Source: Candidatus Levyibacteriota bacterium (GTDB lineage: Bacteria; Patescibacteriota; Microgenomatia; Levybacterales; UBA12049). Taken from it: 64,000 nt of DNA. Both the position numbers and the translations under genes were made by a program. Of the stretch, positions 12,016 through 22,791 are shown one piece after another; positions within the stretch are counted from its first letter, which is position 1, and the number at the start of each line of letters is the position of its first letter. The notes below the pieces were generated by a model. The model saw only the letters and a list, made by a program, of their open reading frames with translations, was not told the origin of the DNA and ran no database searches. The stretch covers positions 3,334 to 67,333 of the forward strand of contig JACQHJ010000001.1 of NCBI GenBank assembly GCA_016199085.1, given 5' to 3'.

Positions 12016-12399
12016 TTGAGCATGAAATCTAAATCACTTGGCGAACTTGAAAAACAGGTAATGGATATCGTTTGGGAGACTAAAAGTTGTTCAGCGCGTG
12101 ACGTTCTTGGTAAACTGAATCTCAAGAAGAAGTTAGCTTACACTACTATTGCAACAATTCTCCAAAGATTACATAACAAGGGGTTTGTTAAAAGAATAGA
12201 AGATAAAAGAGGATATCTTTATTCGCCAAAGCTAACAAGGAAATTCTACACTAAGAGCATTGCTCAGTCATTCTTAAGAAAATTTATTGATTCATTCGGT
12301 GACAGCGCAATTGCCTCATTTGCCCAAAGCGTTGATAAACTTCCCGAAAAAAAACGTGAATATTTTTTGCAACTACTTAAAACAAATGATAAGAGTTAA
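12016..12399 (+). CDS. BlaI/MecI/CopY-family winged-helix transcriptional repressor
   Basis: LGELEKQVMDIVWE...ARDVLGKL...YTTIATILQRLHNKGFVKRIEDKRGYLYSP is the penicillinase-repressor fold signature. Length is 127 aa. Confidence 0.85.
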   Translation: MSMKSKSLGELEKQVMDIVWETKSCSARDVLGKLNLKKKLAYTTIATILQRLHNKGFVKRIEDKRGYLYSPKLTRKFYTKSIAQSFLRKFIDSFGDSAIASFAQSVDKLPEKKREYFLQLLKTNDKS

Positions 12400-13390
12400 T
12401 AAAAACCTTGTTTTCTTTTCCGGATTGTTCCTTTTCGCAGGAACAATTTTATTCTTGGGCACTGAAAAATTCCTTCCCTTATTCACCCACGCCACATATT
12501 ATTGTCAATCATTTATTAATACCCATATGACCCCTATTCCGCATCTTTTAAGCACTACTCCGGTTGCGGTTTTAGTTATAATAGCGATAGTTTCATTTAC
12601 AAAATTACTTATTTTATTATTTAAAGCTTGGTTCATTAGACGTTCATTAGGAGGAGAAATAATAGCTGAAAGAAGAGTAGATGAACTTATAAGAAATCTT
12701 GGGTTGGAAAAACAAACAAGCATTGTTAAATCAAACAGGAAATTTGCTTTTTGCTTAGGTTTCCGCCGTCCCAAGATCTATTTATCAACTGGGCTAATTT
12801 CGAAACTATCTTTAAAGGAAATAGAAGCAGTTCTTAGGCATGAACAGTATCACTTAGAAAATCTTGATACATTGACTCAGATGATCGCTTCCACAGCTTA
12901 TTCTCTTTTTCCAATCTTTCCATTAGTGGGTGATCTTATTAAGAAATACAGAATAGAACGGGAAATACAAGCTGATAAATTTGCTGTTTCTAAAATAGGC
13001 AATACTTATCCTTTGGTTTCGGCTTTGAGAAAATTTCTTGCGTTTACAACAGTTGAAAATTTAGCTCTTGCTGCAATTGCCGATCAAGATACTCTTGAGC
13101 CAAGAATCTACTCACTTATTAATAAATCATACAATCGTAGGCAATTTCGATTAAAACACCTTTTGCTTACCATCTTTTCATCGCTTGTGATTGGAGCTAT
13201 CTTTATAACCCCAATTTATGCAAAAGAAATACACAGCGATAATCAGGATGTCGTAATGTTATGTGGTGATGGTGGAAAATGTGCCAATTCATGCACAACA
13301 AGTTTGCAAAATCTAAATAAATCAAAAAGACCCATTAATCAAATGTTTGGTGGAAAAAATGCTTCAAATCCATACAGCCTGGCACACTAA
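12386..13390 (+). CDS. BlaR1/MecR1-like M56 zinc metallopeptidase (membrane sensor-transducer partner of the BlaI-like repressor)
   Basis: HEXXH motif (LRHEQYHLEN) in a polytopic membrane protein, translationally coupled to the repressor. The start ATG at 12386 overlaps the repressor stop by 14 nt. The ORF-track start at 12287 is upstream read-through in another frame of the repressor. Confidence 0.7.
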   Translation: MIRVNKNLVFFSGLFLFAGTILFLGTEKFLPLFTHATYYCQSFINTHMTPIPHLLSTTPVAVLVIIAIVSFTKLLILLFKAWFIRRSLGGEIIAERRVDELIRNLGLEKQTSIVKSNRKFAFCLGFRRPKIYLSTGLISKLSLKEIEAVLRHEQYHLENLDTLTQMIASTAYSLFPIFPLVGDLIKKYRIEREIQADKFAVSKIGNTYPLVSALRKFLAFTTVENLALAAIADQDTLEPRIYSLINKSYNRRQFRLKHLLLTIFSSLVIGAIFITPIYAKEIHSDNQDVVMLCGDGGKCANSCTTSLQNLNKSKRPINQMFGGKNASNPYSLAH

Positions 13391-13445: not shown

Positions 13446-14246
13446 ATGTCTGTAAAAAAAGAAAAAGGCTCAATAACGAAAGTTAACATGACTGCTAGAT
13501 CAACAATTATTGCTTTGTTTTCCAAGATTACTGTTCCCCAGGCGCTAGTTTTACTTTTAATCATAGCTTCTTTTTTAATTGGAGTTTTATATACAAAAAT
13601 TCAATATCTTGAAAAAAACAGTGCCTTAGAAGCATTGCCTTCCGATCAAGCAGCCGGTGGCCAACAACAGCCTGCGCCGCAAATAAAAGTAAATATAAAA
13701 GATGTTGATATTAAAAATGAACCATATATAGGTGACCAAAACGCTTCGGTTGTCATGGCTTATTGGCTTGATTTTCAATGTCCGTTTTGCCAAAGATTTG
13801 AGACAGAGACCATGCCTTCCTTGGTTGAAAAATATGTAAATACGGGAAAACTTAAAATAGTTTTTAAAGATTTCCAATTCTTAGGTGAGGATTCGACAAC
13901 AGCAGGCCTTGCAGCAAACGCAGTTTGGGAACTAGCCCCTCAAAGCTATTCAACATGGCACAAAGCAATGTATGAAAAACAAGATGGTGAAAACGGAGGA
14001 TGGGGTAAAAAAGAAGACATAATTATTTTGACTAGAACTATATCAGGGATAAATGCTGATCAAGTATCAGCGCTTATGGATCAGAAAAGAGAAGCTTATC
14101 AGAATGAATTGGATGGAGATAATCAGGAAGGAACTAAGTTTGGGATATCAGGTACTCCGGGTTTTGTAATAGGAGAGCAATCTATAATTGGGGCACAACC
14201 CCTTTCAACTTTTACTCAAATAATTGATGCTCTTTTGGAAAAGTAA
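13446..14246 (+). CDS. DsbA-like thiol:disulfide oxidoreductase (thioredoxin fold, membrane-anchored)
   Basis: CPFC active site (WLDFQCPFCQRF), N-terminal TM anchor and DsbA-family length. Confidence 0.8.
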   Translation: MSVKKEKGSITKVNMTARSTIIALFSKITVPQALVLLLIIASFLIGVLYTKIQYLEKNSALEALPSDQAAGGQQQPAPQIKVNIKDVDIKNEPYIGDQNASVVMAYWLDFQCPFCQRFETETMPSLVEKYVNTGKLKIVFKDFQFLGEDSTTAGLAANAVWELAPQSYSTWHKAMYEKQDGENGGWGKKEDIIILTRTISGINADQVSALMDQKREAYQNELDGDNQEGTKFGISGTPGFVIGEQSIIGAQPLSTFTQIIDALLEK

Positions 14247-15883: not shown

Positions 15884-16076
15884 CAAAACGGTTGCAAAAT
15901 TAACCTGTCCCATATGCCAAAAGTTACAAACCGCAAAAATGCCTATTGATGCTTGTCAATATTTTTATAAATGCCAAAGTTGTGGTAAGATGCTAAAACC
16001 AAAAGAAGGAGACTGTTGTGTCTTCTGTTCATATGCAGATACAAAATGTCCGTCAAAGCAATCCACGTCAGCCTAA
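15876..16076 (+). CDS. small Cys-rich zinc-ribbon/metal-binding protein
   Basis: CPICQK...CQYFYKCQSCGK...GDCCVFCSYADTKCP, 66 aa. The start overlaps the upstream gene by 8 nt. Confidence 0.5.
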   Translation: MSSKTVAKLTCPICQKLQTAKMPIDACQYFYKCQSCGKMLKPKEGDCCVFCSYADTKCPSKQSTSA

Positions 16077-16083
16077 ATTCTAT

Positions 16084-17684
16084 ATGAATAAAGAGCTTTT
16101 AAATAAAATTTCCAGTATGCAAAAGGTGCTTATCGCTGTCTTTATTGCCTTTTTGTTTGTTGCCGGAATATATTTATATTTAAACCCACAAGATAAATTG
16201 TCTCAGTCGAAACAAACCGGAGAGTTTTCAAATGCAGTGAATAATTATCCTCTGGCAAAAACACCCGAAGTAGTAGAACTGAAAAATGGCGACAGTTATA
16301 ATCTTGCCGCAAGTATTGTAAAGAAAAATATAAAGGGTCAGGAGATAAAAATGCTTGCCTATAACGGTTCTATTCCGGGTCCGATTATTAAATTGTCTCA
16401 AGGTGCAGAAATTACAGTTAATTTCAAAAATGAGACCGATGTTGACTCAACAATTCATTCACACGGTGTAAGGGTTGATAATAAGTTCGATGGAGTGGCT
16501 GATGTAACCCAGAAAGCAGTGAAACCTGGAGAGAGCTTTAGTTATAAACTGAAATTTCCTGACGCTGGAATCTTTTGGTATCATCCTCACATCCGTGAGG
16601 ACTATGCGCAAGAACTAGGTATGTATGGGAATTATTTGGTTACGCCAACACAGAAGGATTACTGGGCAGAAGTTGACCGAGAAGAAACACTGTTTCTTGA
16701 TGACCTCCTGACAGAAAACGGAAAGATTGCCTTTTTTGATAGAAATATCGTTAACAACACGTTAATGGGGAGATTTGGTAACGTCATGTTAATTAACGCA
16801 GATGATAAATATCGTCTTTCAATTAAGCAAGGAGAAAGAGTCCGTTTTTATTTAACAAATGCTGCCAACACAAGAGTTTTTAATGCTTCAATTCCCAACG
16901 CTCAAATGCGCTTGGTTGGAGGAGATAACGGGAAATATGAACGGGAGGAATGGATCGATTCCGTACTTTTGGGGCCATCCGAGAGAGCAATTGTCGAAGT
17001 TTGGTTTGATAAGGCGGGAAAATATCAAATTATTCATAAAACTCCGGATAAAACATATACTCTGGGAACAATCTCAGTTGCAAAGAGTCCGGTTACCACC
17101 TCTTATCTTCTTACTCCCCGTGTAAACCAGGATTTTATAAATTCTCTTTCTTTCCTGCGCCCGCTTTTCACAAAGCCCGTTGACCAAAAACTCAATATAA
17201 CCGTAGATATGATGGGAATGAACCAGGGCTCAATGATGATGGGAGGAAACCAGTCAATGGGCATGCAGGATGATAATGACGGCGATAAAATTGAATGGGA
17301 AGACAATATGCAGATGATGAACGCTATGTCTACGAATAAAAACATAAAATGGAAATTAGTTGATGATCAAACAAAAAAAAAGAGAACATGGATATTAACT
17401 GGCAATTTAGAAAAGGTGAAAAAGTTAAGATTTCAATTTTTAACAATCCGAAATCCGAGCATCCAATGCAGCACCCAATACATATTCATGGCCAGAGGTT
17501 TTTAATTTTAAGTACGAATGGTGTATCAAACGATAACCTTGTTTGGAAAGATACTGCTCTTGTGCAAAAAGGCGACACCATGGAACTCTTGGTTGATATG
17601 GAAAACCCGGGAGACTGGCTAATACACTGCCATATCCCAGAACACATGGAAGCAGGGATGATGTCGCAGTTTAAAGTAATTTAA
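16084..17684 (+). CDS. multicopper oxidase (three-domain laccase/CueO-like), reading frame interrupted at an A9 homopolymer (about 17374-17382)
   Basis: Copper ligand motifs HSHGVRVDN and WYHPHIRED in the 5' ORF (16018..17505). HPIHIHGQRF and HCHIPEHMEAGMM (the T1 site) appear in the +1-frame ORF 17388..17684. The two parts overlap around a run of nine A. An N-terminal signal/TM is present. Confidence 0.8.
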
Positions 17685-17720: not shown

Positions 17721-17749
17721 TTGACAAGTGTATTTTGGCAATGATATAT
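17721..17749 (+). promoter_or_regulatory. sigma70-type promoter TTGACA-N17-TGATATAT upstream of the ArsR-YHS gene
   Basis: Consensus -35 hexamer with a 17-nt spacer and an extended -10. This implies a leaderless start at 17764. Confidence 0.55.
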
Positions 17750-17765
17750 TCGAAATATCGAATAT
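17746..17765 (+). promoter_or_regulatory. candidate ArsR/SmtB operator: perfect 8-4-8 inverted repeat ATATTCGA-AATA-TCGAATAT
   Basis: Read directly from the sequence. It overlaps the -10 element and the start codon of the ArsR-family gene. Confidence 0.5.
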
Positions 17766-18252
17766 GTATTCAGAAGTATTTTTCTTTCATGCAAAGCTTT
17801 TGAAAGCCTTGTCCAATCCAAAGCGTCTTGAAATTCTCCAGCTTCTTAGGAATCAGCAGTTAACTGTAAGTGAGATTCAGGAAATGTTGAGTTTGCCCCA
17901 GGGAAATTTAAGCCAGCATCTTCAAGTCCTACGTTTATCCAAAGTAGTTGAGGCGAAACGAGATGGAAAACAAATCCACTATAAGGTCGCTCACAAAAAT
18001 TTCATTAAAGCTAGCGATTTAATGAGAGAAATTCTTATTGAGCAGCACCAAAATGACCCATTAATAAAAGATCTTGGTAGGAAAATGACAGATCTTGTTC
18101 CGCTCTCTTTAGATCCTGTATGCAAAATGAGATTAAGTCCAAAAACAGCATCTTTTATCTCAAAACTAAATGGTGATTCTTACTATTTCTGTGCATCCGG
18201 ATGCTTTGAAACTTTTAATAAAAATCCAAATAAATATATACGCAAAAAATAA
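17764..18252 (+). CDS. ArsR/SmtB-family metalloregulator fused to a C-terminal YHS/TRASH metal-binding domain
   Basis: HTH (LSNPKRLEILQLL...LTVSEIQEMLSLPQGNLSQHLQVLRLSKVV) plus a C-terminus CKMRLSPK...DSYYFCASGCFETFNKNP, which is the YHS signature. The start is taken at the ATG at 17764 (MYSEVFFF...). The ORF track uses an upstream GTG at 17728. Confidence 0.8.
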   Translation: MYSEVFFFHAKLLKALSNPKRLEILQLLRNQQLTVSEIQEMLSLPQGNLSQHLQVLRLSKVVEAKRDGKQIHYKVAHKNFIKASDLMREILIEQHQNDPLIKDLGRKMTDLVPLSLDPVCKMRLSPKTASFISKLNGDSYYFCASGCFETFNKNPNKYIRKK

Positions 18253-18255
18253 TTT

Positions 18256-19137
18256 ATGGAACTTTTAGTTAGTGCATCATTTATAGCAGCTTTTGTAGCA
18301 GGAATTGCAGCCTTGTTTGCCCCGTGCTGCGTAACAATACTTCTTCCCACATATCTTGCTTCTATTTTTAAGGATAGAACAACTGTTTTTCTAATGACAT
18401 TTATTTATTTTTTAGGTCTTTTGACAGTATTTATGCCGATTGGTTTAGGCGCAGTAGCCTTAACCCAAGTTTTTAGTGCTTATCACAACATTATTTTTTC
18501 CCTAGGTGCTATATTTTTGATATTTTTGGGTGTATTTTTACTTTTGGGCAGACAATTTTCTCTTCCGTTTAATGTACACCCCGAACTTAAAAAAGCAAGT
18601 GCTGGATCAGTATTTACTCTTGGAATATTTTCAGGTATTGCTACAACGTGCTGTGCGCCTGTACTAGCTGGGGTATTAACTCTTGCAGCACTGCCCGGAT
18701 CATTTCTGTTAGGAGGAGCATATACTCTTGCCTATGTTTTGGGAATGGTAGTTCCTCTTTTTATTATTGCCACAGTTTTAGACAGAGCAAAATTTACAAA
18801 GAAATTTTTTGCTTTCAGAAAAACCGTAGATTATTCCCTTTTTGGAAATAAAATCAGATTAACCCTTTCCAATCTCTTCTCAGGAGCGATGTTTTTGGTT
18901 CTTGGCATTATCGTTTTAAATCTTGCCAGAACAAACAATCTTACAGCGCATGCGTCTTATCAAGTAAGCATAAATATTTATCTGACAAGATTAACACAAT
19001 TTATCAGTCAGTATACAAAAATTATTCCTGAAGTGGCGTGGGCTTTTGTCTTCGTTTGCATTTTTCTTTTAATTGCCTTTCTTGCAGTTAAACAGCTTAG
19101 AGATGCAAAAAATATTAATAAAGAATCGAAATTATGA
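18256..19137 (+). CDS. DsbD_2/CcdA-like polytopic membrane protein with paired-Cys motifs
   Basis: About 8 TM helices. FAPCCVTILLP in TM1 and ATTCCAPVLAG in a later TM. Overlaps the downstream redoxin gene by 4 nt. Confidence 0.6.
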   Translation: MELLVSASFIAAFVAGIAALFAPCCVTILLPTYLASIFKDRTTVFLMTFIYFLGLLTVFMPIGLGAVALTQVFSAYHNIIFSLGAIFLIFLGVFLLLGRQFSLPFNVHPELKKASAGSVFTLGIFSGIATTCCAPVLAGVLTLAALPGSFLLGGAYTLAYVLGMVVPLFIIATVLDRAKFTKKFFAFRKTVDYSLFGNKIRLTLSNLFSGAMFLVLGIIVLNLARTNNLTAHASYQVSINIYLTRLTQFISQYTKIIPEVAWAFVFVCIFLLIAFLAVKQLRDAKNINKESKL

Positions 19138-19784
19138 AAGAAAATAAGCAAAATTTAATACTAATTGCGCTGATTGTAGGATTTATTATCCTTTTAATAG
19201 TTGTAGTTGTTGCGCTTGCCGATGATTCAAGTAAAACACCCCAAAATATAGAAGTTTCTAATCAGGATGATATGTCAGGTCATCACGAGTCAGCAGCGCC
19301 TGATGAAAATGCATTTAACTCGCTTCTTGGTAAAGTTGCTCCTAATTTTAATCTTAAAAGCTATGATGATAAGGAAATTGAACTTGAAAAACTTCGTGGG
19401 AAAAAAGTAGTAATCTTCTTTACTGAAGGGCTAATGTGTTATCCCGCTTGCTGGAATCAAATGGCGGCATTTGGTCAGGATAGCGCATTTAATAACAAAG
19501 ATGTGGTAACTTTAAATATTGCCGTTGATAATAAAAATGAATGGAAAGATGCTGTTGAGAAAATGCCTGAACTAGCCAAGACTACAGTGCTGTTTGACAA
19601 TAACAGAAGCGTTTCTAATGAGTATGGAGTACTTACCCTTGCCTCTTCAATGCATAAAGGGCAGTATCCGGGACACACATATTTAATTCTTGACAGAAAA
19701 GGCATTGTCAAGTTTATTTATGACGACCCGCAAATGGGTGTCAGAAATGATGAATTGAAAAAGGAACTTGAGAAAATAGAATAA
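19134..19784 (+). CDS. secreted redoxin/TlpA-ResA-like thiol-disulfide oxidoreductase
   Basis: Thioredoxin fold with a CYPAC active site (VVIFFTEGLMCYPACWNQ). N-terminal TM anchor. Confidence 0.75.
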   Translation: MKENKQNLILIALIVGFIILLIVVVVALADDSSKTPQNIEVSNQDDMSGHHESAAPDENAFNSLLGKVAPNFNLKSYDDKEIELEKLRGKKVVIFFTEGLMCYPACWNQMAAFGQDSAFNNKDVVTLNIAVDNKNEWKDAVEKMPELAKTTVLFDNNRSVSNEYGVLTLASSMHKGQYPGHTYLILDRKGIVKFIYDDPQMGVRNDELKKELEKIE

Positions 19785-19785
19785 A

Positions 19786-20763
19786 ATGAGTATTAAAAAT
19801 ATTAAAAAAAAGTATTTTAATAAAAAATCATTTAAAAAAATTAAGAAGTTTTTTAGCGAAAAGGGTCTTAAATCTTTATTAATTTTTCTTGTAATAATTG
19901 CCTCTTTCTTATCTGGAATACTATTTGATAAGGTAACAATACTTAAAAACGCTGAGAATATCAAGAATACGGAGGTTTTGGAGAATAATAAACAGACCGA
20001 AGACCTAACTAGGCTACAAGATAAAGTCCTTAAGGAAAATTATGTTTTTAAAATTAAATGGGGAGATTTGGGTAAAAGAATGGTTGAGGATGGTGTTATT
20101 GATAAAGAAAAGTTTGCCCAGGCCATAACTGGAGAAAACCAACTTCCAAAAGATTTGGATAAATACTTCTCTGACGGACAGGATAAAATAGAAATCAATC
20201 CGCAAAATGCACAATTTTGGGTTGATATTTTGTGGGGACTGGGTCTTGCCAACAAAAATAGGATTTTGGAAGAAGGTGCTATGAAGCAAAATGGAGATAC
20301 TTCTAATTTTGCTTCAACCGGAGGATGGACCCTGGGGCCCGAAGACCCAATGTCTATATATTCAAGATACTCATATATTAATCTTTCCCAAAGGGAGCAA
20401 GAGATTGTAGAAGAAATTGCAGGAAATATTTATAGGCCATGCTGTGGTAATTCAACAGCATTTCCTGACTGTAATCATGGAATGGCAATGCTTGGACTAA
20501 TAGAGCTAATGGTTTCTCAGGGATTTTCCAAAGACGAGATTTATAAAACGGCACTTGCGTTTAATACTTACTGGTTTCCAAATACTTATCTAAATACAGC
20601 TTATTATCTAGATATAAACGGTAAGGATTATAATAAAATATCTCCAAAAGAAATTCTATCTGAAAATTTTTCAAGCGCTATGGGGGCTCAAGCAATTGCA
20701 AAAGAATCTGAAGGTGTTGAGTGGCCTGCGCTTCAAAGTAGCGGAGGAAGCTGCGGAGCGTAG
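19786..20763 (+). CDS. hypothetical membrane-anchored extracytoplasmic protein with Cys cluster
   Basis: TM anchor, then RPCCGNSTAFPDCNHGMAM and a C-terminal GGSCGA. No known family recognised. Confidence 0.5.
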   Translation: MSIKNIKKKYFNKKSFKKIKKFFSEKGLKSLLIFLVIIASFLSGILFDKVTILKNAENIKNTEVLENNKQTEDLTRLQDKVLKENYVFKIKWGDLGKRMVEDGVIDKEKFAQAITGENQLPKDLDKYFSDGQDKIEINPQNAQFWVDILWGLGLANKNRILEEGAMKQNGDTSNFASTGGWTLGPEDPMSIYSRYSYINLSQREQEIVEEIAGNIYRPCCGNSTAFPDCNHGMAMLGLIELMVSQGFSKDEIYKTALAFNTYWFPNTYLNTAYYLDINGKDYNKISPKEILSENFSSAMGAQAIAKESEGVEWPALQSSGGSCGA

Positions 20764-20766
20764 AAA

Positions 20767-21204
20767 ATGAAAAACAATATTAGCATATCAATAAGAAATG
20801 CCGCAGTTTCGACTATTATCCTTTTGCTAATTTATATCTCGATTGTTTCATTTGTAAGCGGATGGGATTTTACCAAAGACCAATTTTCAAGATATTGGTA
20901 TTTTATCATAACGCTTGCGATAGGATTTGGCACTCAAGTTGGTTTTTACACCTATCTTAAAAATGCAATCAAACAAAATGCTTCGCCAAGGGTTTTGGCT
21001 GTTTCAGGGACAACCTCAACAGCGGCTATGATTTCATGCTGCGCCCATTATCTTGTAAATCTTTTGCCAATCTTAGGAGCAGTAGGTATTATTACTGTTA
21101 TTTCTCAATATCAAATTCAACTCTTCTGGGTAGGAATTGCTTTTAATTTTTTAGGAATAGCTTATATGGCAAATAAAGTTTACAAATTTTCAAAAGTAAT
21201 ATGA
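20767..21204 (+). CDS. small polytopic membrane protein with intramembrane CC motif
   Basis: 4 predicted TM helices with MISCCAHYL in TM3. Confidence 0.5.
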   Translation: MKNNISISIRNAAVSTIILLLIYISIVSFVSGWDFTKDQFSRYWYFIITLAIGFGTQVGFYTYLKNAIKQNASPRVLAVSGTTSTAAMISCCAHYLVNLLPILGAVGIITVISQYQIQLFWVGIAFNFLGIAYMANKVYKFSKVI

Positions 21205-21650
21205 GAAATAAATTAATTTTACTTTCGGTCTTAATAATAAGTTTAGCAATTCTTGCTTTTGTTATTTTGAAATTGCCAAGTCAAAACACCCAAACCCAAA
21301 TCCAACCAAAAAGTAAAACAAGTGTTTTATACGAATCAAAAACAGATGAAAAGGGATCAGTAGTAGTAGAGGTCAAGCCGCTTTCGTTAATACCAAAAGA
21401 CAATGTTTCATTTAATCTTACGTTTACGACCCATTCGGGTGATCTTAGCTATGATATTGCTGCTATTGCAAAACTTCAAGACGATAAGGGAAATACATCT
21501 AAAGCCCTATCCTGGACTGGAGGGAAAGGCGGACATCATCTATCGGGTATCCTTACATTCCCTAAACTATCAGAAGATGCTTGGGCTGTGACATTAACAA
21601 TTTCGGGAATTGATAATCAGGATAGGATTTTTGAATGGGAATTAAACTAA
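21201..21650 (+). CDS. hypothetical secreted beta-rich protein
   Basis: Signal anchor followed by a domain with an Ig-like composition (GGKGGHH). Overlaps its neighbours by 4 nt. Confidence 0.45.
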   Translation: MRNKLILLSVLIISLAILAFVILKLPSQNTQTQIQPKSKTSVLYESKTDEKGSVVVEVKPLSLIPKDNVSFNLTFTTHSGDLSYDIAAIAKLQDDKGNTSKALSWTGGKGGHHLSGILTFPKLSEDAWAVTLTISGIDNQDRIFEWELN

Positions 21651-21654
21651 GTAT

Positions 21655-21975
21655 ATGAAAAATAATTTAGTGGCCTGGGTTATAGGAGCGTTGGTTGTCG
21701 GAGGATTTTTTGGATTTTTAATCGGACAAAACAATCAGACATTTGAAAGAGACAGCATGAATGAAGCCGCCTCAATGATGAAAGATAACGGTTCTTACAT
21801 GATGCAGATGGGAAAAATGATGAGGGAAAACGGAATGATGATGCAAAATATGGGAACACAAATGGGAGATCAGGATTTTTCCCAAAAAGGTAAAGAATTG
21901 GAAGATAATGGAGGAATGATGGAGGAAAGAGGTTCCCAAATGAACGATCGCGGTAATGGAATGATGAACTATTAA
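21655..21975 (+). CDS. methionine-rich small membrane-anchored protein (putative Cu(I)-binding, Met-motif)
   Basis: After the TM anchor, 25 of about 80 residues are Met, in MxxM/MMxxM arrays (SYMMQMGKMMRENGMMMQNMGTQMG...GGMMEERGSQMNDRGNGMMNY). Confidence 0.6.
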   Translation: MKNNLVAWVIGALVVGGFFGFLIGQNNQTFERDSMNEAASMMKDNGSYMMQMGKMMRENGMMMQNMGTQMGDQDFSQKGKELEDNGGMMEERGSQMNDRGNGMMNY

Positions 21976-21983
21976 AAAAGGAG

Positions 21984-22256
21984 GTGAGAATAATGTTAAA
22001 ACCAATAGCATTAGCAAATGCGTCTGCAGTTGTTGCACTAGGCATTTATGTTTTGTGCTGGATTTTGGCGCTTGTTGCTCCTGACTTTCTTTTCGTTGTT
22101 GCCAAAAGCTGGTTTCATGCATTTAACATTGACAGCGCGCAGACTGCAGCTTCGCTAAACATTGTGGAATTGGCCTTAGGAGCAGTAGCGCTATCTGTAT
22201 TAGTCTGGGTAACTTTCTACGCCGGGGCTGTTTTGTACAATAAATGGGCAGAATAG
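21984..22256 (+). CDS. small two-TM membrane protein
   Basis: Strong SD (AAAGGAGGTGAG) 8 nt upstream. 90 aa, hydrophobic. Confidence 0.5.
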   Translation: MRIMLKPIALANASAVVALGIYVLCWILALVAPDFLFVVAKSWFHAFNIDSAQTAASLNIVELALGAVALSVLVWVTFYAGAVLYNKWAE

Positions 22257-22455: not shown

Positions 22456-22484
22456 TTGACAAATATAAGAAGTCTTGCTAATAT
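22456..22484 (+). promoter_or_regulatory. sigma70 promoter TTGACA-N17-TGcTAATAT driving csoR
   Basis: Consensus -35 hexamer, 17-nt spacer and extended -10, read directly from the sequence. Confidence 0.6.
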
Positions 22485-22503
22485 ATCCCCTATAGGGGGA
22501 TAT
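22483..22503 (+). promoter_or_regulatory. CsoR-type operator: ATATCCCCTATAGGGGGATAT (C-tract/G-tract pseudo-palindrome)
   Basis: Overlaps the -10 element and +1, and lies 19 nt upstream of csoR. It has the same architecture as known CsoR operators (TACCC...GGGTA type). Confidence 0.65.
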
Positions 22504-22521
22504 CTGTAAAGAAAGAAAAAT

Positions 22522-22791
22522 ATGGCATATAGACCAAAAGATACTCAGGAAAGAATCATACACCGCCTTAAAATTGCCAGAGGACAACTGGACGCTGTTA
22601 TAAAAATGGTAGTAGAAGATAAATACTGCATTGATGTAATTCATCAATCCAAAGCTGTTCAGGAGGCATTGAAGCAAATAGACAACATAATGCTTGAAAA
22701 CCATTTACAAACCTGCGTTGGTGATTCTTTCAAAAGTGGTAATCAGAAAAAAGCAACAGAAGAGCTAATGCGGGTTTTTCGCAAAAACTAA
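22522..22791 (+). CDS. csoR: CsoR/RcnR-family copper-sensing repressor
   Basis: 89 aa. RIARGQLDAVIKMVVEDKYCIDVIHQSKAVQEAL...LQTC is the CsoR four-helix-bundle signature with Cys-His-Cys ligands. Confidence 0.85.
   Translation: MAYRPKDTQERIIHRLKIARGQLDAVIKMVVEDKYCIDVIHQSKAVQEALKQIDNIMLENHLQTCVGDSFKSGNQKKATEELMRVFRKN

Follow-up and report, generated by a model that had tools for sequence, protein, structure and literature searches.

An ArsR/SmtB-type regulator with an appended YHS/TRASH domain as a likely copper-responsive autorepressor in Patescibacteria

The subject of this analysis is a regulator gene located at 17764..18252 (+ strand, 162 amino acids plus stop) in a 64,000-nucleotide stretch of contig JACQHJ010000001.1 of a Candidatus Levyibacteriota bacterium (hereafter the window), whose product combines an ArsR/SmtB-type winged helix-turn-helix (wHTH) with a C-terminal YHS/TRASH domain. 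We consider it likely that this protein is a Cu(I)-responsive autorepressor, released by Cu(I) and probably also by Ag(I). The features established here by computation are the domain architecture, a set of invariant residues, an operator in fixed register with the start codon, the geometry of the promoter that it covers, and the gene neighborhood.

Architecture of the regulator

The gene was delimited by Pfam domains and by alignment of homologues, and its product is 100% identical to a protein listed as 'metalloregulator ArsR/SmtB family transcription factor' of a Candidatus Levybacteria bacterium. Translation starts at ATG 17764, which has an aligned counterpart in all 77 orthologous loci compared, where the protein nearly always begins with M-Y. 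GTG 17728, given as the start by the open reading frame (ORF) lister, was rejected because it lies inside the promoter and the orthologues begin at the aligned ATG.

An initial annotation of the window had described the protein as an ArsR/SmtB helix-turn-helix (HTH) fused to a C-terminal YHS/TRASH domain, and both parts were recovered by profile searches. The ArsR-type wHTH comprises residues 1-95 (17764..18048, + strand; alpha1-alpha5 plus the beta wing), as judged from Pfam, NCBIfam, an AlphaFold2 (AF2) model, Foldseek and a PDB profile search. Pfam HTH_5 matches residues 18-57 with 45.4 bits (cutoff 22, E 7e-12) and HTH_20 scores 40.6 bits (cutoff 27), the two matches together spanning residues 16-63, while NCBIfam NF033788 ('metalloregulator ArsR/SmtB') reaches 78.7 bits (cutoff 55). 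HTH_24, at 17.2 bits, stays under its cutoff of 21.9, in line with an HTH of ArsR type, and none of the Pfam and NCBIfam models for Trns_repr_metal, Penicillinase_R with a C-terminal CxCx4CxC, or the MerR HTH matches the regulator. The recognition helix is formed by residues 46-58, in which Q-x-N-L-S-Q-H-L (17899-17937) is invariant in the alignment of the close family. A linker of residues 96-116 (18049..18111, + strand), recognizable by a conserved M108-x-(D/E)-L-V-P motif, leads to the appended domain.

This YHS/TRASH domain covers residues 117-159 (18112..18240, + strand) and was defined by its match to Pfam YHS (PF04945; 42.5 bits, cutoff 30.3, E 6e-11), by its invariant residues and by the AF2 model. 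Its putative ligands are D117 (18112-18114), C120 (18121-18123), C143 (18190-18192) and C147 (18202-18204), all on the + strand; they stand in a D117-P-V-C120 context and show the spacing C120-X22-C143-X3-C147, which is the TRASH signature, and the motif DSYYFCASGCFETF is present. All four residues are invariant in 27 close homologues as well as in a 19-sequence alignment that includes fusions at 31-47% identity. The conservation of the Cys ligands in homologues, on which the initial annotation had staked its proposal, thus extends down to 31% identity.

All cysteines of the protein are found in the YHS/TRASH domain. Residues 1-116 contain none, and the wHTH is wholly Cys-free in both the close and the distant alignments, which leaves the appended domain as the only possible source of a thiolate metal site. 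The core metal-site ligands (alpha3N Cys-X-Cys; alpha5 DxH...HxxH) were not found in the regulator alignments, in which alpha3 reads L-T/S-V-S-E-I and position 95 varies between H, N, Y and F. A metal site in the core alpha5 or between the domains, made of H9, H77 and D85, was also considered and rejected, as these residues are invariant in the close family only and not in the distant fusions. The earlier suggestion that the metal site would be supplied by the appended domain agrees well with this distribution of cysteines.

An AF2 monomer built from 27 sequences (mean predicted local distance difference test, pLDDT, 80.7) shows helices at residues 2-16, 19-27, 35-42 and 46-58, strands at 62-67 and 70-75 and a helix at 78-94, which amounts to a canonical ArsR fold over residues 1-94, with a pLDDT of 82-95 over the wHTH part. 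The YHS part is modeled as a small beta hairpin plus helix, in which C143 closes the hairpin and C147 opens the helix, the placement that a TRASH/treble-clef knuckle should have (PMC4999995). Foldseek (probability 1.00) gave template modeling scores of 0.75-0.79 to SmtB, HlyU, NolR, CzrA, BigR and SqrR over about 90 residues, and the closest solved wHTH relatives (HlyU, BigR, Rv0081, PagR, NolR, SqrR and SmtB/CzrA, likewise with about 90 residues covered) are all ArsR proteins. No solved structure with the appended domain was found in the PDB sequence and fold searches, in which the matches cover the wHTH alone, apart from a weak one of the YHS part, to phenol hydroxylase only. The regulator is presumably a dimer, with which the two-fold symmetry of the operator described below would be consistent.

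The operator and the promoter beneath it

The putative operator is a perfect 8-4-8 inverted repeat at 17746..17765 (no strand assigned), detected by a repeat finder, whose arms ATATTCGA (17746-17753) and TCGAATAT (17758-17765) are 100% complementary and are separated by the 4-nt spacer AATA. Just as had been noted in the initial annotation, the repeat overlaps both an extended -10 element and the start codon: it shares 5 nt with the -10 hexamer, and the final AT of its right arm is the AT of ATG 17764-17766. The promoter scan placed the -35 hexamer TTGACA at 17721..17726 and the extended -10 at 17742..17750 (TG 17742-17743, A, TATATT 17745-17750), both on the + strand; with its 18-nt spacer and 11/12 matches plus the TG, this sigma70-type promoter is the best site between 15800 and 20000. 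A near-consensus promoter that has its -10, predicted start and ATG all under the site fits repression rather than activation, and lends support to the autorepression proposed earlier.

Within the window the site stands alone. The 8-4-8 pattern with up to 3 mismatches has 2 matches in 64 kb against 0.51 expected, the only exact one being the regulator site, and TATTC-N8-GAATA (0.17 expected) and ATTC-N8-GAAT each occur once, at the same place. The half-site TATTCGA, further copies of which the initial annotation had thought worth looking for, is present three times, two of them inside the repeat; no second operator, be it for the multicopper oxidase or for the ATPase, was found in the window at any stringency.

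The presence of the repeat in orthologous loci had been set beforehand as a test of the proposal. A one-genome-per-GTDB-species scan found relatives of the regulator in at least 212 genomes and returned 80 loci, and among the 77 loci compared, the conserved core ATATTC-N8-GAATAT (the whole 20-mer being ATATTCGAAATATCGAATAT) lies at exactly -18..+2 relative to the ATG in 56, of which 27 are perfect 8-4-8 repeats. In the 77 ATG-aligned upstream regions, conservation reaches 80-100% over the operator positions (-18 to -13 and -4 to +2) and 30-50% in the flanks. Of 72 exact copies of the 6-8-6 motif in the 865 kb of locus DNA, 65 lie at the start of the regulator itself. Four loci whose regulator has no site of its own (L009, L043, L079 and L023) carry one before an upstream gene of the same co-directional string, and in L042 the site is located just 3' of the regulator, ahead of the next gene. 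The invariance of the recognition helix is matched by that of the half-sites, which we count in favor of a pairing of regulator and operator.

Two promoter classes could be distinguished among the loci. In class 1 (28 loci, including the window), a TTGACA or one-mismatch -35 lies 17-18 nt before TATATT, which is the left half-site. In class 2 (15 loci), the -35 is found 17-18 nt before a TAATAT-like hexamer inside the operator spacer, and 6 nt separate this hexamer from the A of the ATG, which puts +1 on that A and yields a true leaderless geometry. These assignments are matched by the base at position -19, which is T in class 1 and C in class 2. In both classes, the -10 and the start region lie beneath the operator, as they would for a repressor. 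The start in the window had been called leaderless; this does not hold there, since the -10 ends 13 nt before the ATG. With +1 at the customary distance of 6-8 nt from the -10, class 1 promoters would give leaders of some 5-7 nt that lack a Shine-Dalgarno sequence, the prediction for the window being about 6-7 nt; the leaderless geometry is that of class 2. A clear Shine-Dalgarno sequence is seen in 3/55 long ORFs of the window, several of which have TATAAT 6-8 nt before their ATG (e.g., 25614, 34576, 39808 and 56794), so that leaderless or near-leaderless mRNAs seem to be the rule in this genome and not peculiar to the regulator gene.

A palindrome over a start codon could also act mainly at the RNA level, either by sequestering the AUG in transcripts reading through from the multicopper oxidase gene upstream or as a terminator. 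The RNA from 17740 to 17775 indeed folds into a 10-bp stem that includes the AUG (-9.3 kcal/mol, z = -2.9), and no terminator is predicted between the oxidase gene and the regulator promoter. However, in either promoter class transcription is predicted to begin within the repeat, leaving the mRNA from the regulator's own promoter without the left arm, and a T-run after the stem is absent. The six outer pairs of the repeat are invariant and hence uninformative on pairing, while the seventh is complementary in 36/56 loci and non-complementary in 20/56, without compensatory change; in addition, the same 20-mer occurs in either orientation beside ArsR genes in unrelated high-GC bacteria. Half-sites that are kept in sequence without compensatory change indicate protein recognition rather than an RNA stem. 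For these reasons, we rejected a hairpin or terminator as the main function, which we regard as extremely unlikely, and conclude that the palindrome is in all appearance a protein-binding site with 6-bp half-sites, although the stem might conceivably mask the AUG when transcripts read through from the oxidase gene.

Distribution of the fusion and its gene neighborhoods

A word-indexed search yielded 378 clusters of ArsR-YHS proteins at 90% identity, and all 120 listed homologues carry both domains, with lengths of 155-193 amino acids. An exhaustive search of 50%-identity representatives added more distant members, about 45 of the best 150 being full-length fusions, down to 31% identity. The architecture had been called uncommon, which is true of the literature, where we found no paper on an ArsR-YHS fusion (papers with a TRASH domain and ArsR describe separate genes), but not of nature, given the minimum of 212 species genomes and the 378 clusters.

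Named carriers are Levy-, Roizman-, Woese-, Pace-, Collier-, Chisholm- and Andersenbacteria, 'Saccharibacteria' and one complete genome labeled TM6; among the distant fusions, the only labels obtained were Saccharibacteria and candidate division WS5, most clusters carrying no name. By name, almost all of the family belongs to the Patescibacteria (candidate phyla radiation, CPR), counts by name being unreliable because the titles of some contigs are probably placeholders or wrong taxonomy: many contigs whose operons are of typical CPR type and whose regulators show 55-81% identity bear the title 'uncultured Gammaproteobacteria' or 'Pseudomonadales' ('binchicken' and similar metagenome-assembled genomes), and one bears 'Rikenellaceae'.

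Scanning metagenome contigs for the exact 20-mer retrieved 82 contigs, among them two groups. In about 33 low-GC contigs, an ArsR+YHS gene starts inside the site. In about 25 contigs of 53-71% GC, the 20-mer lies 4-20 nt from a gene for a Cys-free ArsR protein of 112-118 amino acids that shares the helix ...EQAN(L/V/A)SQHL with the regulator. The occurrence of the 20-mer beside ArsR genes with the same helix ties this sequence to such an HTH type. The HTH-operator pair is therefore ancient and in wide use, and what sets the CPR family apart is the YHS domain added after alpha5.

The short ArsR proteins of the high-GC contigs (L084, L086, L094, L103, L105, L112, L115, L117, L127, L137, L138, L140, L150, L152, L158 and L159) show the features MQDALRQFKADFFQALAHPTRIAI...EQANASQHL...RRYFHAH, and their genes adjoin SulP-like permeases or Hyf/Nuo-like membrane subunits; they form an uncharacterized ArsR subgroup that shares the operator. 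Deducing the effector from these YHS-less relatives was tried and abandoned, as their neighbors are unrelated to metals and gave no lead. Several CPR contigs have the identical operator a second time, directly next to the ATG of a gene for a DsbA-like thioredoxin-fold protein with CPFC or CPYC (L092, with sites at 1271-1290 and 2766-2785; L141; L089, L113 and L136), which extends the putative regulon to envelope disulfide oxidoreductases. This gene is a homologue of the DsbA-like gene at 13446-14246 in the window, which itself has no operator.

The link to copper comes from the genes next to the regulator. We clustered the neighboring ORFs of the 80 loci, annotated the cluster representatives, and counted genes downstream of the regulator on the same strand in the 65 loci with at least 3 kb of downstream sequence. 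A copper-type P1B ATPase is the dominant partner (55/65 loci), ahead of an HMA protein (36/65) and a DsbD_2-cupredoxin fusion (35/65); DsbD_TM follows in 20/65 loci, DUF1573 and an unnamed Cys-rich family (c3) in 19/65 each, a multicopper oxidase in 4/65 and a redoxin in 3/65. CsoR was found downstream of the regulator in 0/65 loci, suggesting that ArsR-YHS fills the CsoR role in most of these genomes.

Two operon types recur. Type A consists of the regulator, a CopA-type ATPase (CPC, N-terminal HMA MHCASC), a DsbD_2-Cupredoxin_1 fusion and an HMA (CopZ-like) protein, and the window-like type B of the regulator, DUF1573, the unnamed Cys-rich family, DsbD_TM, in some cases DUF305, and then DUF5676 and a CopB-type ATPase (CPH, N-terminal HMBD). 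Three Andersenbacteria-type loci have the regulator followed by a multicopper oxidase and then the ATPase. Overlaps of 4-20 nt between the regulator and the gene after it are frequent. The 56 ATPases of the loci carry YN(x4)P (56/56), MxxSS (49) and CPC (30) or CPH (14), and have an N-terminal HMA or HMBD. These copper-type neighbors narrow the effector to copper, and the putative regulon would consist of copper efflux together with extracytoplasmic thiol-redox and copper-handling proteins. Copper is toxic to envelope thiols (compare the Scs system), and the make-up of the regulon matches this toxicity.

In the window itself, the neighbors had been correctly named as a multicopper oxidase upstream (16018-17684) and a DsbD-redoxin pair downstream. 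The regulator gene is followed, all on the + strand, by genes for a DsbD_TM membrane thiol-disulfide transporter (18256..19137, Pfam), the presumed second gene of the operon, and for a membrane-anchored AhpC/TSA redoxin (19134..19784, Pfam). With gaps of 3 and -4 nt, this pair is very probably co-transcribed with the regulator. The initial annotation had the regulator possibly controlling both neighbors; this is upheld for the DsbD-redoxin pair but not for the multicopper oxidase, which sits upstream of the regulator promoter without an operator, so that the site could control it only by some undetected mechanism.

Beyond the pair, the string continues with a 325-amino-acid protein of the c3 family (19786..20763), a 145-amino-acid membrane protein with CCAH whose family recurs in orthologous operons (20767..21204), a 149-amino-acid protein (21201..21650), a Met-rich protein of 106 amino acids (21655..21975) and DUF5676 (21984..22256, Pfam), which also recurs in orthologous operons and with which the transcription unit would end. 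The c3 member was delimited as an ORF recurring in the loci and the next three genes by ORF spacing; the seven ORFs after the regulator are spaced by -4 to +8 nt. The c3 family (307-331 amino acids, N-terminal membrane anchor, PCCGNSTAFPDCNHGMAMLGL and a C-terminal GGSCG) has no Pfam or NCBIfam match; it is found in 19 related loci (e.g., L008 6990-7928), beside DUF1573 and DsbD_TM, and is probably an extracytoplasmic copper- or thiol-handling protein. The product of 21655-21975 is small, exported, very Met-rich (e.g., MMKDNGSYMMQMGKMMRENGMMMQNMG) and without family match; a Met-rich Cu(I)-binding periplasmic protein is plausible here.

A 265-nt gap separates DUF5676 from a new promoter (TTGACA 22456-22461, 17 nt, TAATAT 22479-22484, with TG ahead), right after which a GC-rich palindrome, ATATCCCC-TATAG-GGGGATAT, is located at 22483-22503. 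It precedes a CsoR-like gene with the C-H-C signature (22522-22791), 4.3 kb downstream of the regulator, then a gene for a small membrane protein, and then a P1B ATPase gene that runs from 23131 (or 23155) to 25404 and whose product is of copper type by TIGR01511 (589 bits, above cutoff). Given the absence of CsoR from the 65 orthologous loci, the CsoR module (22456-22791) looks like a lineage-specific insertion. The fourth-transmembrane-segment motif of this ATPase is CPD; YN(x4)P and MxxSS are kept, and its N-terminus has an HMBD (CPKCGM) and a Met/His-rich stretch.

Upstream of the regulator, the oxidase is split into two frames (16018-17505 and 17388-17684), the shift lying at an A9 run (17373-17381) when compared with an intact 556-amino-acid orthologue; an assembly error in the homopolymer, a pseudogene, or phase variation prone to slippage would each explain it. 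Further upstream (12016-13390), a BlaI/MecI-type 'penicillinase repressor' gene without C-terminal Cys motif, and thus not CopY-like, is followed by a gene for a BlaR1/M56-M48 peptidase-like membrane protein, and this pair heads the co-directional string in which the DsbA-like gene, genes for unnamed Cys-rich proteins and the oxidase gene follow.

Proposed mechanism, alternatives and known systems

From these features we infer that the protein binds the site and represses from it, that copper is the effector, and that an allosteric route connects the two. An ArsR-type wHTH dimer would bind the palindrome ATATTC-N8-GAATAT and, by covering the -10, the predicted start and the start codon, would block RNA polymerase at an otherwise strong promoter (TTGACA-18-TGnTATATT). 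Metal would be bound by the D117/C120/C143/C147 site of the YHS/TRASH domain, and its binding may shift the seat of the appended domains on the dimer, such that the affinity for DNA falls. Derepression would then allow transcription of the regulator and of the tightly packed genes downstream, the predicted targets in the window being DsbD_TM, the redoxin, the unnamed Cys-rich exported protein, the small membrane and Met-rich proteins and DUF5676, to which in most relatives a CopA- or CopB-type ATPase, the DsbD_2-cupredoxin fusion and the CopZ-like HMA protein may be added.

The same architecture and operator might serve a different effector. An Asp with three Cys could bind Zn, Cd or Hg, TRASH binds Cd in the L24e crystal (PMC4626032) and Hg in MerH (PMC3600143), and DNA binding by archaeal CopR in vitro was lowered by all metal ions tested (PMC7830388), all of which would suit a sensor of another thiophilic metal (Zn(II), Cd(II), Hg(II) or Pb(II)) or broad soft-metal sensing. 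We consider this unlikely in view of the copper-type neighbors, from the ATPases (CPC or CPH, YN(x4)P, MxxSS; TIGR01511 ahead of TIGR01512) to the multicopper oxidase, cupredoxin and HMA proteins, and because we saw no genes of mer, czc or zntA type in the loci. The YHS cysteines might, alternatively, form a thiol-redox or persulfide switch over envelope thiol-redox genes, the copper genes being co-regulated only via thiol stress; such a switch would accord with the identity of the closest characterized wHTH relatives (HlyU, BigR and SqrR), with the SqrR-type operator, with DsbD_TM and the redoxin as the first regulated genes in the window and with the second operator at the DsbA-like gene in other CPR contigs. 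Yet the SqrR/BigR cysteine pair is absent, the BigR equivalog NF040642 scores 61 bits against a cutoff of 155, the invariant Asp with C-X22-C-X3-C is a metal-binding TRASH signature, and the gene most often paired with the regulator in the family encodes a copper ATPase. Since DsbD- and thioredoxin-like proteins are known copper-tolerance factors, as in the Scs system, their presence in the operons speaks against the redox switch as well, which we judge to be quite unlikely.

It is equally improbable, in our estimate, that the YHS domain is a structural or dimerization Zn module of a repressor that is constitutive or otherwise controlled, at the protein level or through a partner such as CopZ. 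A structural role is common among TRASH and treble-clef domains (PMC4999995), and the YHS-less relatives on the same operator imply that the domain is not needed for DNA recognition; however, a non-sensing repressor heading a copper-efflux operon would be maladaptive, no other regulator was seen in the 65 loci (0 CsoR), and YHS/TRASH domains have precedents as sensors (PMC4626032, PMC7830388). Several points nevertheless weigh against a copper-released autorepressor, some of them shared with the structural alternative: TRASH-like domains can be structural, as in ribosomal protein L24e, the YHS domain of toluene-4-hydroxylase has no bound metal (PMC4626032), and the Asp and three Cys could likewise be a structural Zn site. 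The AF2 monomer does not place the two domains reliably relative to each other, given a linker pLDDT below 50 (at residues 105-110) and a predicted template modeling score of 0.57. The YHS-less, Cys-less relatives with an identical operator adjoin non-metal genes, and hence the DNA module says nothing about the effector. In the window, the ATPase lies 5 kb downstream, past the 265-nt gap, with its own promoter, CsoR-like repressor and GC-rich palindrome, so that ArsR-YHS may control only thiol-redox and envelope genes there.

Compared with characterized regulators, the Cu(I)-responsive autorepressor proposed here combines features of several systems. It shares family and fold with the metal-sensing ArsR/SmtB proteins (SmtB, CzrA, CadC, NmtR, CmtR and the Cu(I)/Ag(I)-responsive BxmR), which are homodimeric repressors that leave a promoter inverted repeat on binding metal, are usually autoregulated and lie beside an efflux gene. 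The known metal sites in the ArsR family are built from core helices or from N- or C-terminal tails (alpha3N, alpha5 and related), whereas the candidate site of the regulator lies wholly in a separately folding appended domain. CsoR, as well as CopY and CueR, which are the established cytoplasmic copper sensors of bacteria, would have the same predicted role, that is, Cu(I)-released repression of a copA/copZ-type operon, with unrelated folds.

The closest wHTH relatives, in both sequence and structure, are found in the SqrR/BigR/YgaV/HlyU clade, whose operators have the same ATTC-N8-GAAT core and also overlap their own promoters: ATTC-N8-GAAT is the reported SqrR site, and a similar site at the promoter of its own gene is footprinted by YgaV, for which autorepression is documented (PMC9774250). 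Unlike the regulator, SqrR, BigR and YgaV sense by a Cys pair in the wHTH (alpha2 and the C-terminal end of alpha5); the regulator has no such pair and carries the appended YHS domain in its place. A precedent for that domain is the class III adenylyl cyclase of Mycobacterium phlei, in which a C-terminal YHS on a short linker is a copper-sensing module with one Asp and three Cys proposed as ligands, the same set as here; its output differs, being cAMP synthesis instead of DNA binding, and Cu2+ was the ion used to measure activation in vitro (PMC4626032).

HTH plus C-terminal TRASH is also the arrangement of the archaeal CopR/CopT proteins (Sulfolobus CopT, Pyrococcus/Thermococcus CopR and Halobacterium VNG1179C/VNG1197C), and in archaeal CopR the TRASH domain is the copper-sensing part, since its deletion lowers copper-induced DNA release (PMC7830388). 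In both systems, the regulator gene is a neighbor of genes for a P1B copper ATPase and a metallochaperone, and the cop promoter carries a (semi)palindrome (PMC7830388, PMC3600143), to which binding is predicted in the present case. CopR/CopT proteins have an Lrp/AsnC-type HTH, form octamers, act at archaeal TBP/TFB promoters, partly as activators, and recognize the motif TTNNCAWWWTGNNAA, in contrast to the regulator with its ArsR/SmtB wHTH, presumed dimer, sigma70-type promoter, ATATTC-N8-GAATAT operator and occurrence in Patescibacteria. An HTH of ArsR and not of Lrp/AsnC type makes the regulator an analogue, not a member, of CopR/CopT, and it is best read as their bacterial, ArsR-scaffold counterpart.

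Overall, these results put at about even odds a wider model in which ArsR-YHS is the main cytoplasmic copper sensor of the Patescibacteria and a new sensory class of ArsR/SmtB proteins, with a TRASH domain tethered to alpha5 and grafted on an ancient SqrR-like module whose operator has remained nearly unchanged across phyla, and with the operator fused to the core promoter and the start codon. According to this model, the half-site doubles as the -10 in one lineage, and the spacer does so in another, in genomes largely without Shine-Dalgarno sequences. A metal site on a separately folding domain would be a new class within the ArsR family and, if true, would add an appended-domain sensing mode to the ArsR/SmtB metalloregulators and mean that bacteria and archaea reached the combination of HTH and TRASH on different DNA-binding scaffolds.

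For the uncultivated Patescibacteria with their small genomes, hardly any regulatory system has been elucidated. The unit described here is not surprising in principle, but it is clean and unstudied: a complete and simple regulatory unit of a 162-amino-acid protein, a 20-bp site and a defined promoter, which recurs in more than 200 species and is testable outside its host. Its near-invariant operator, moreover, offers a practical marker for copper-stress regulons in metagenomes, including those with unnamed Cys-rich envelope proteins.

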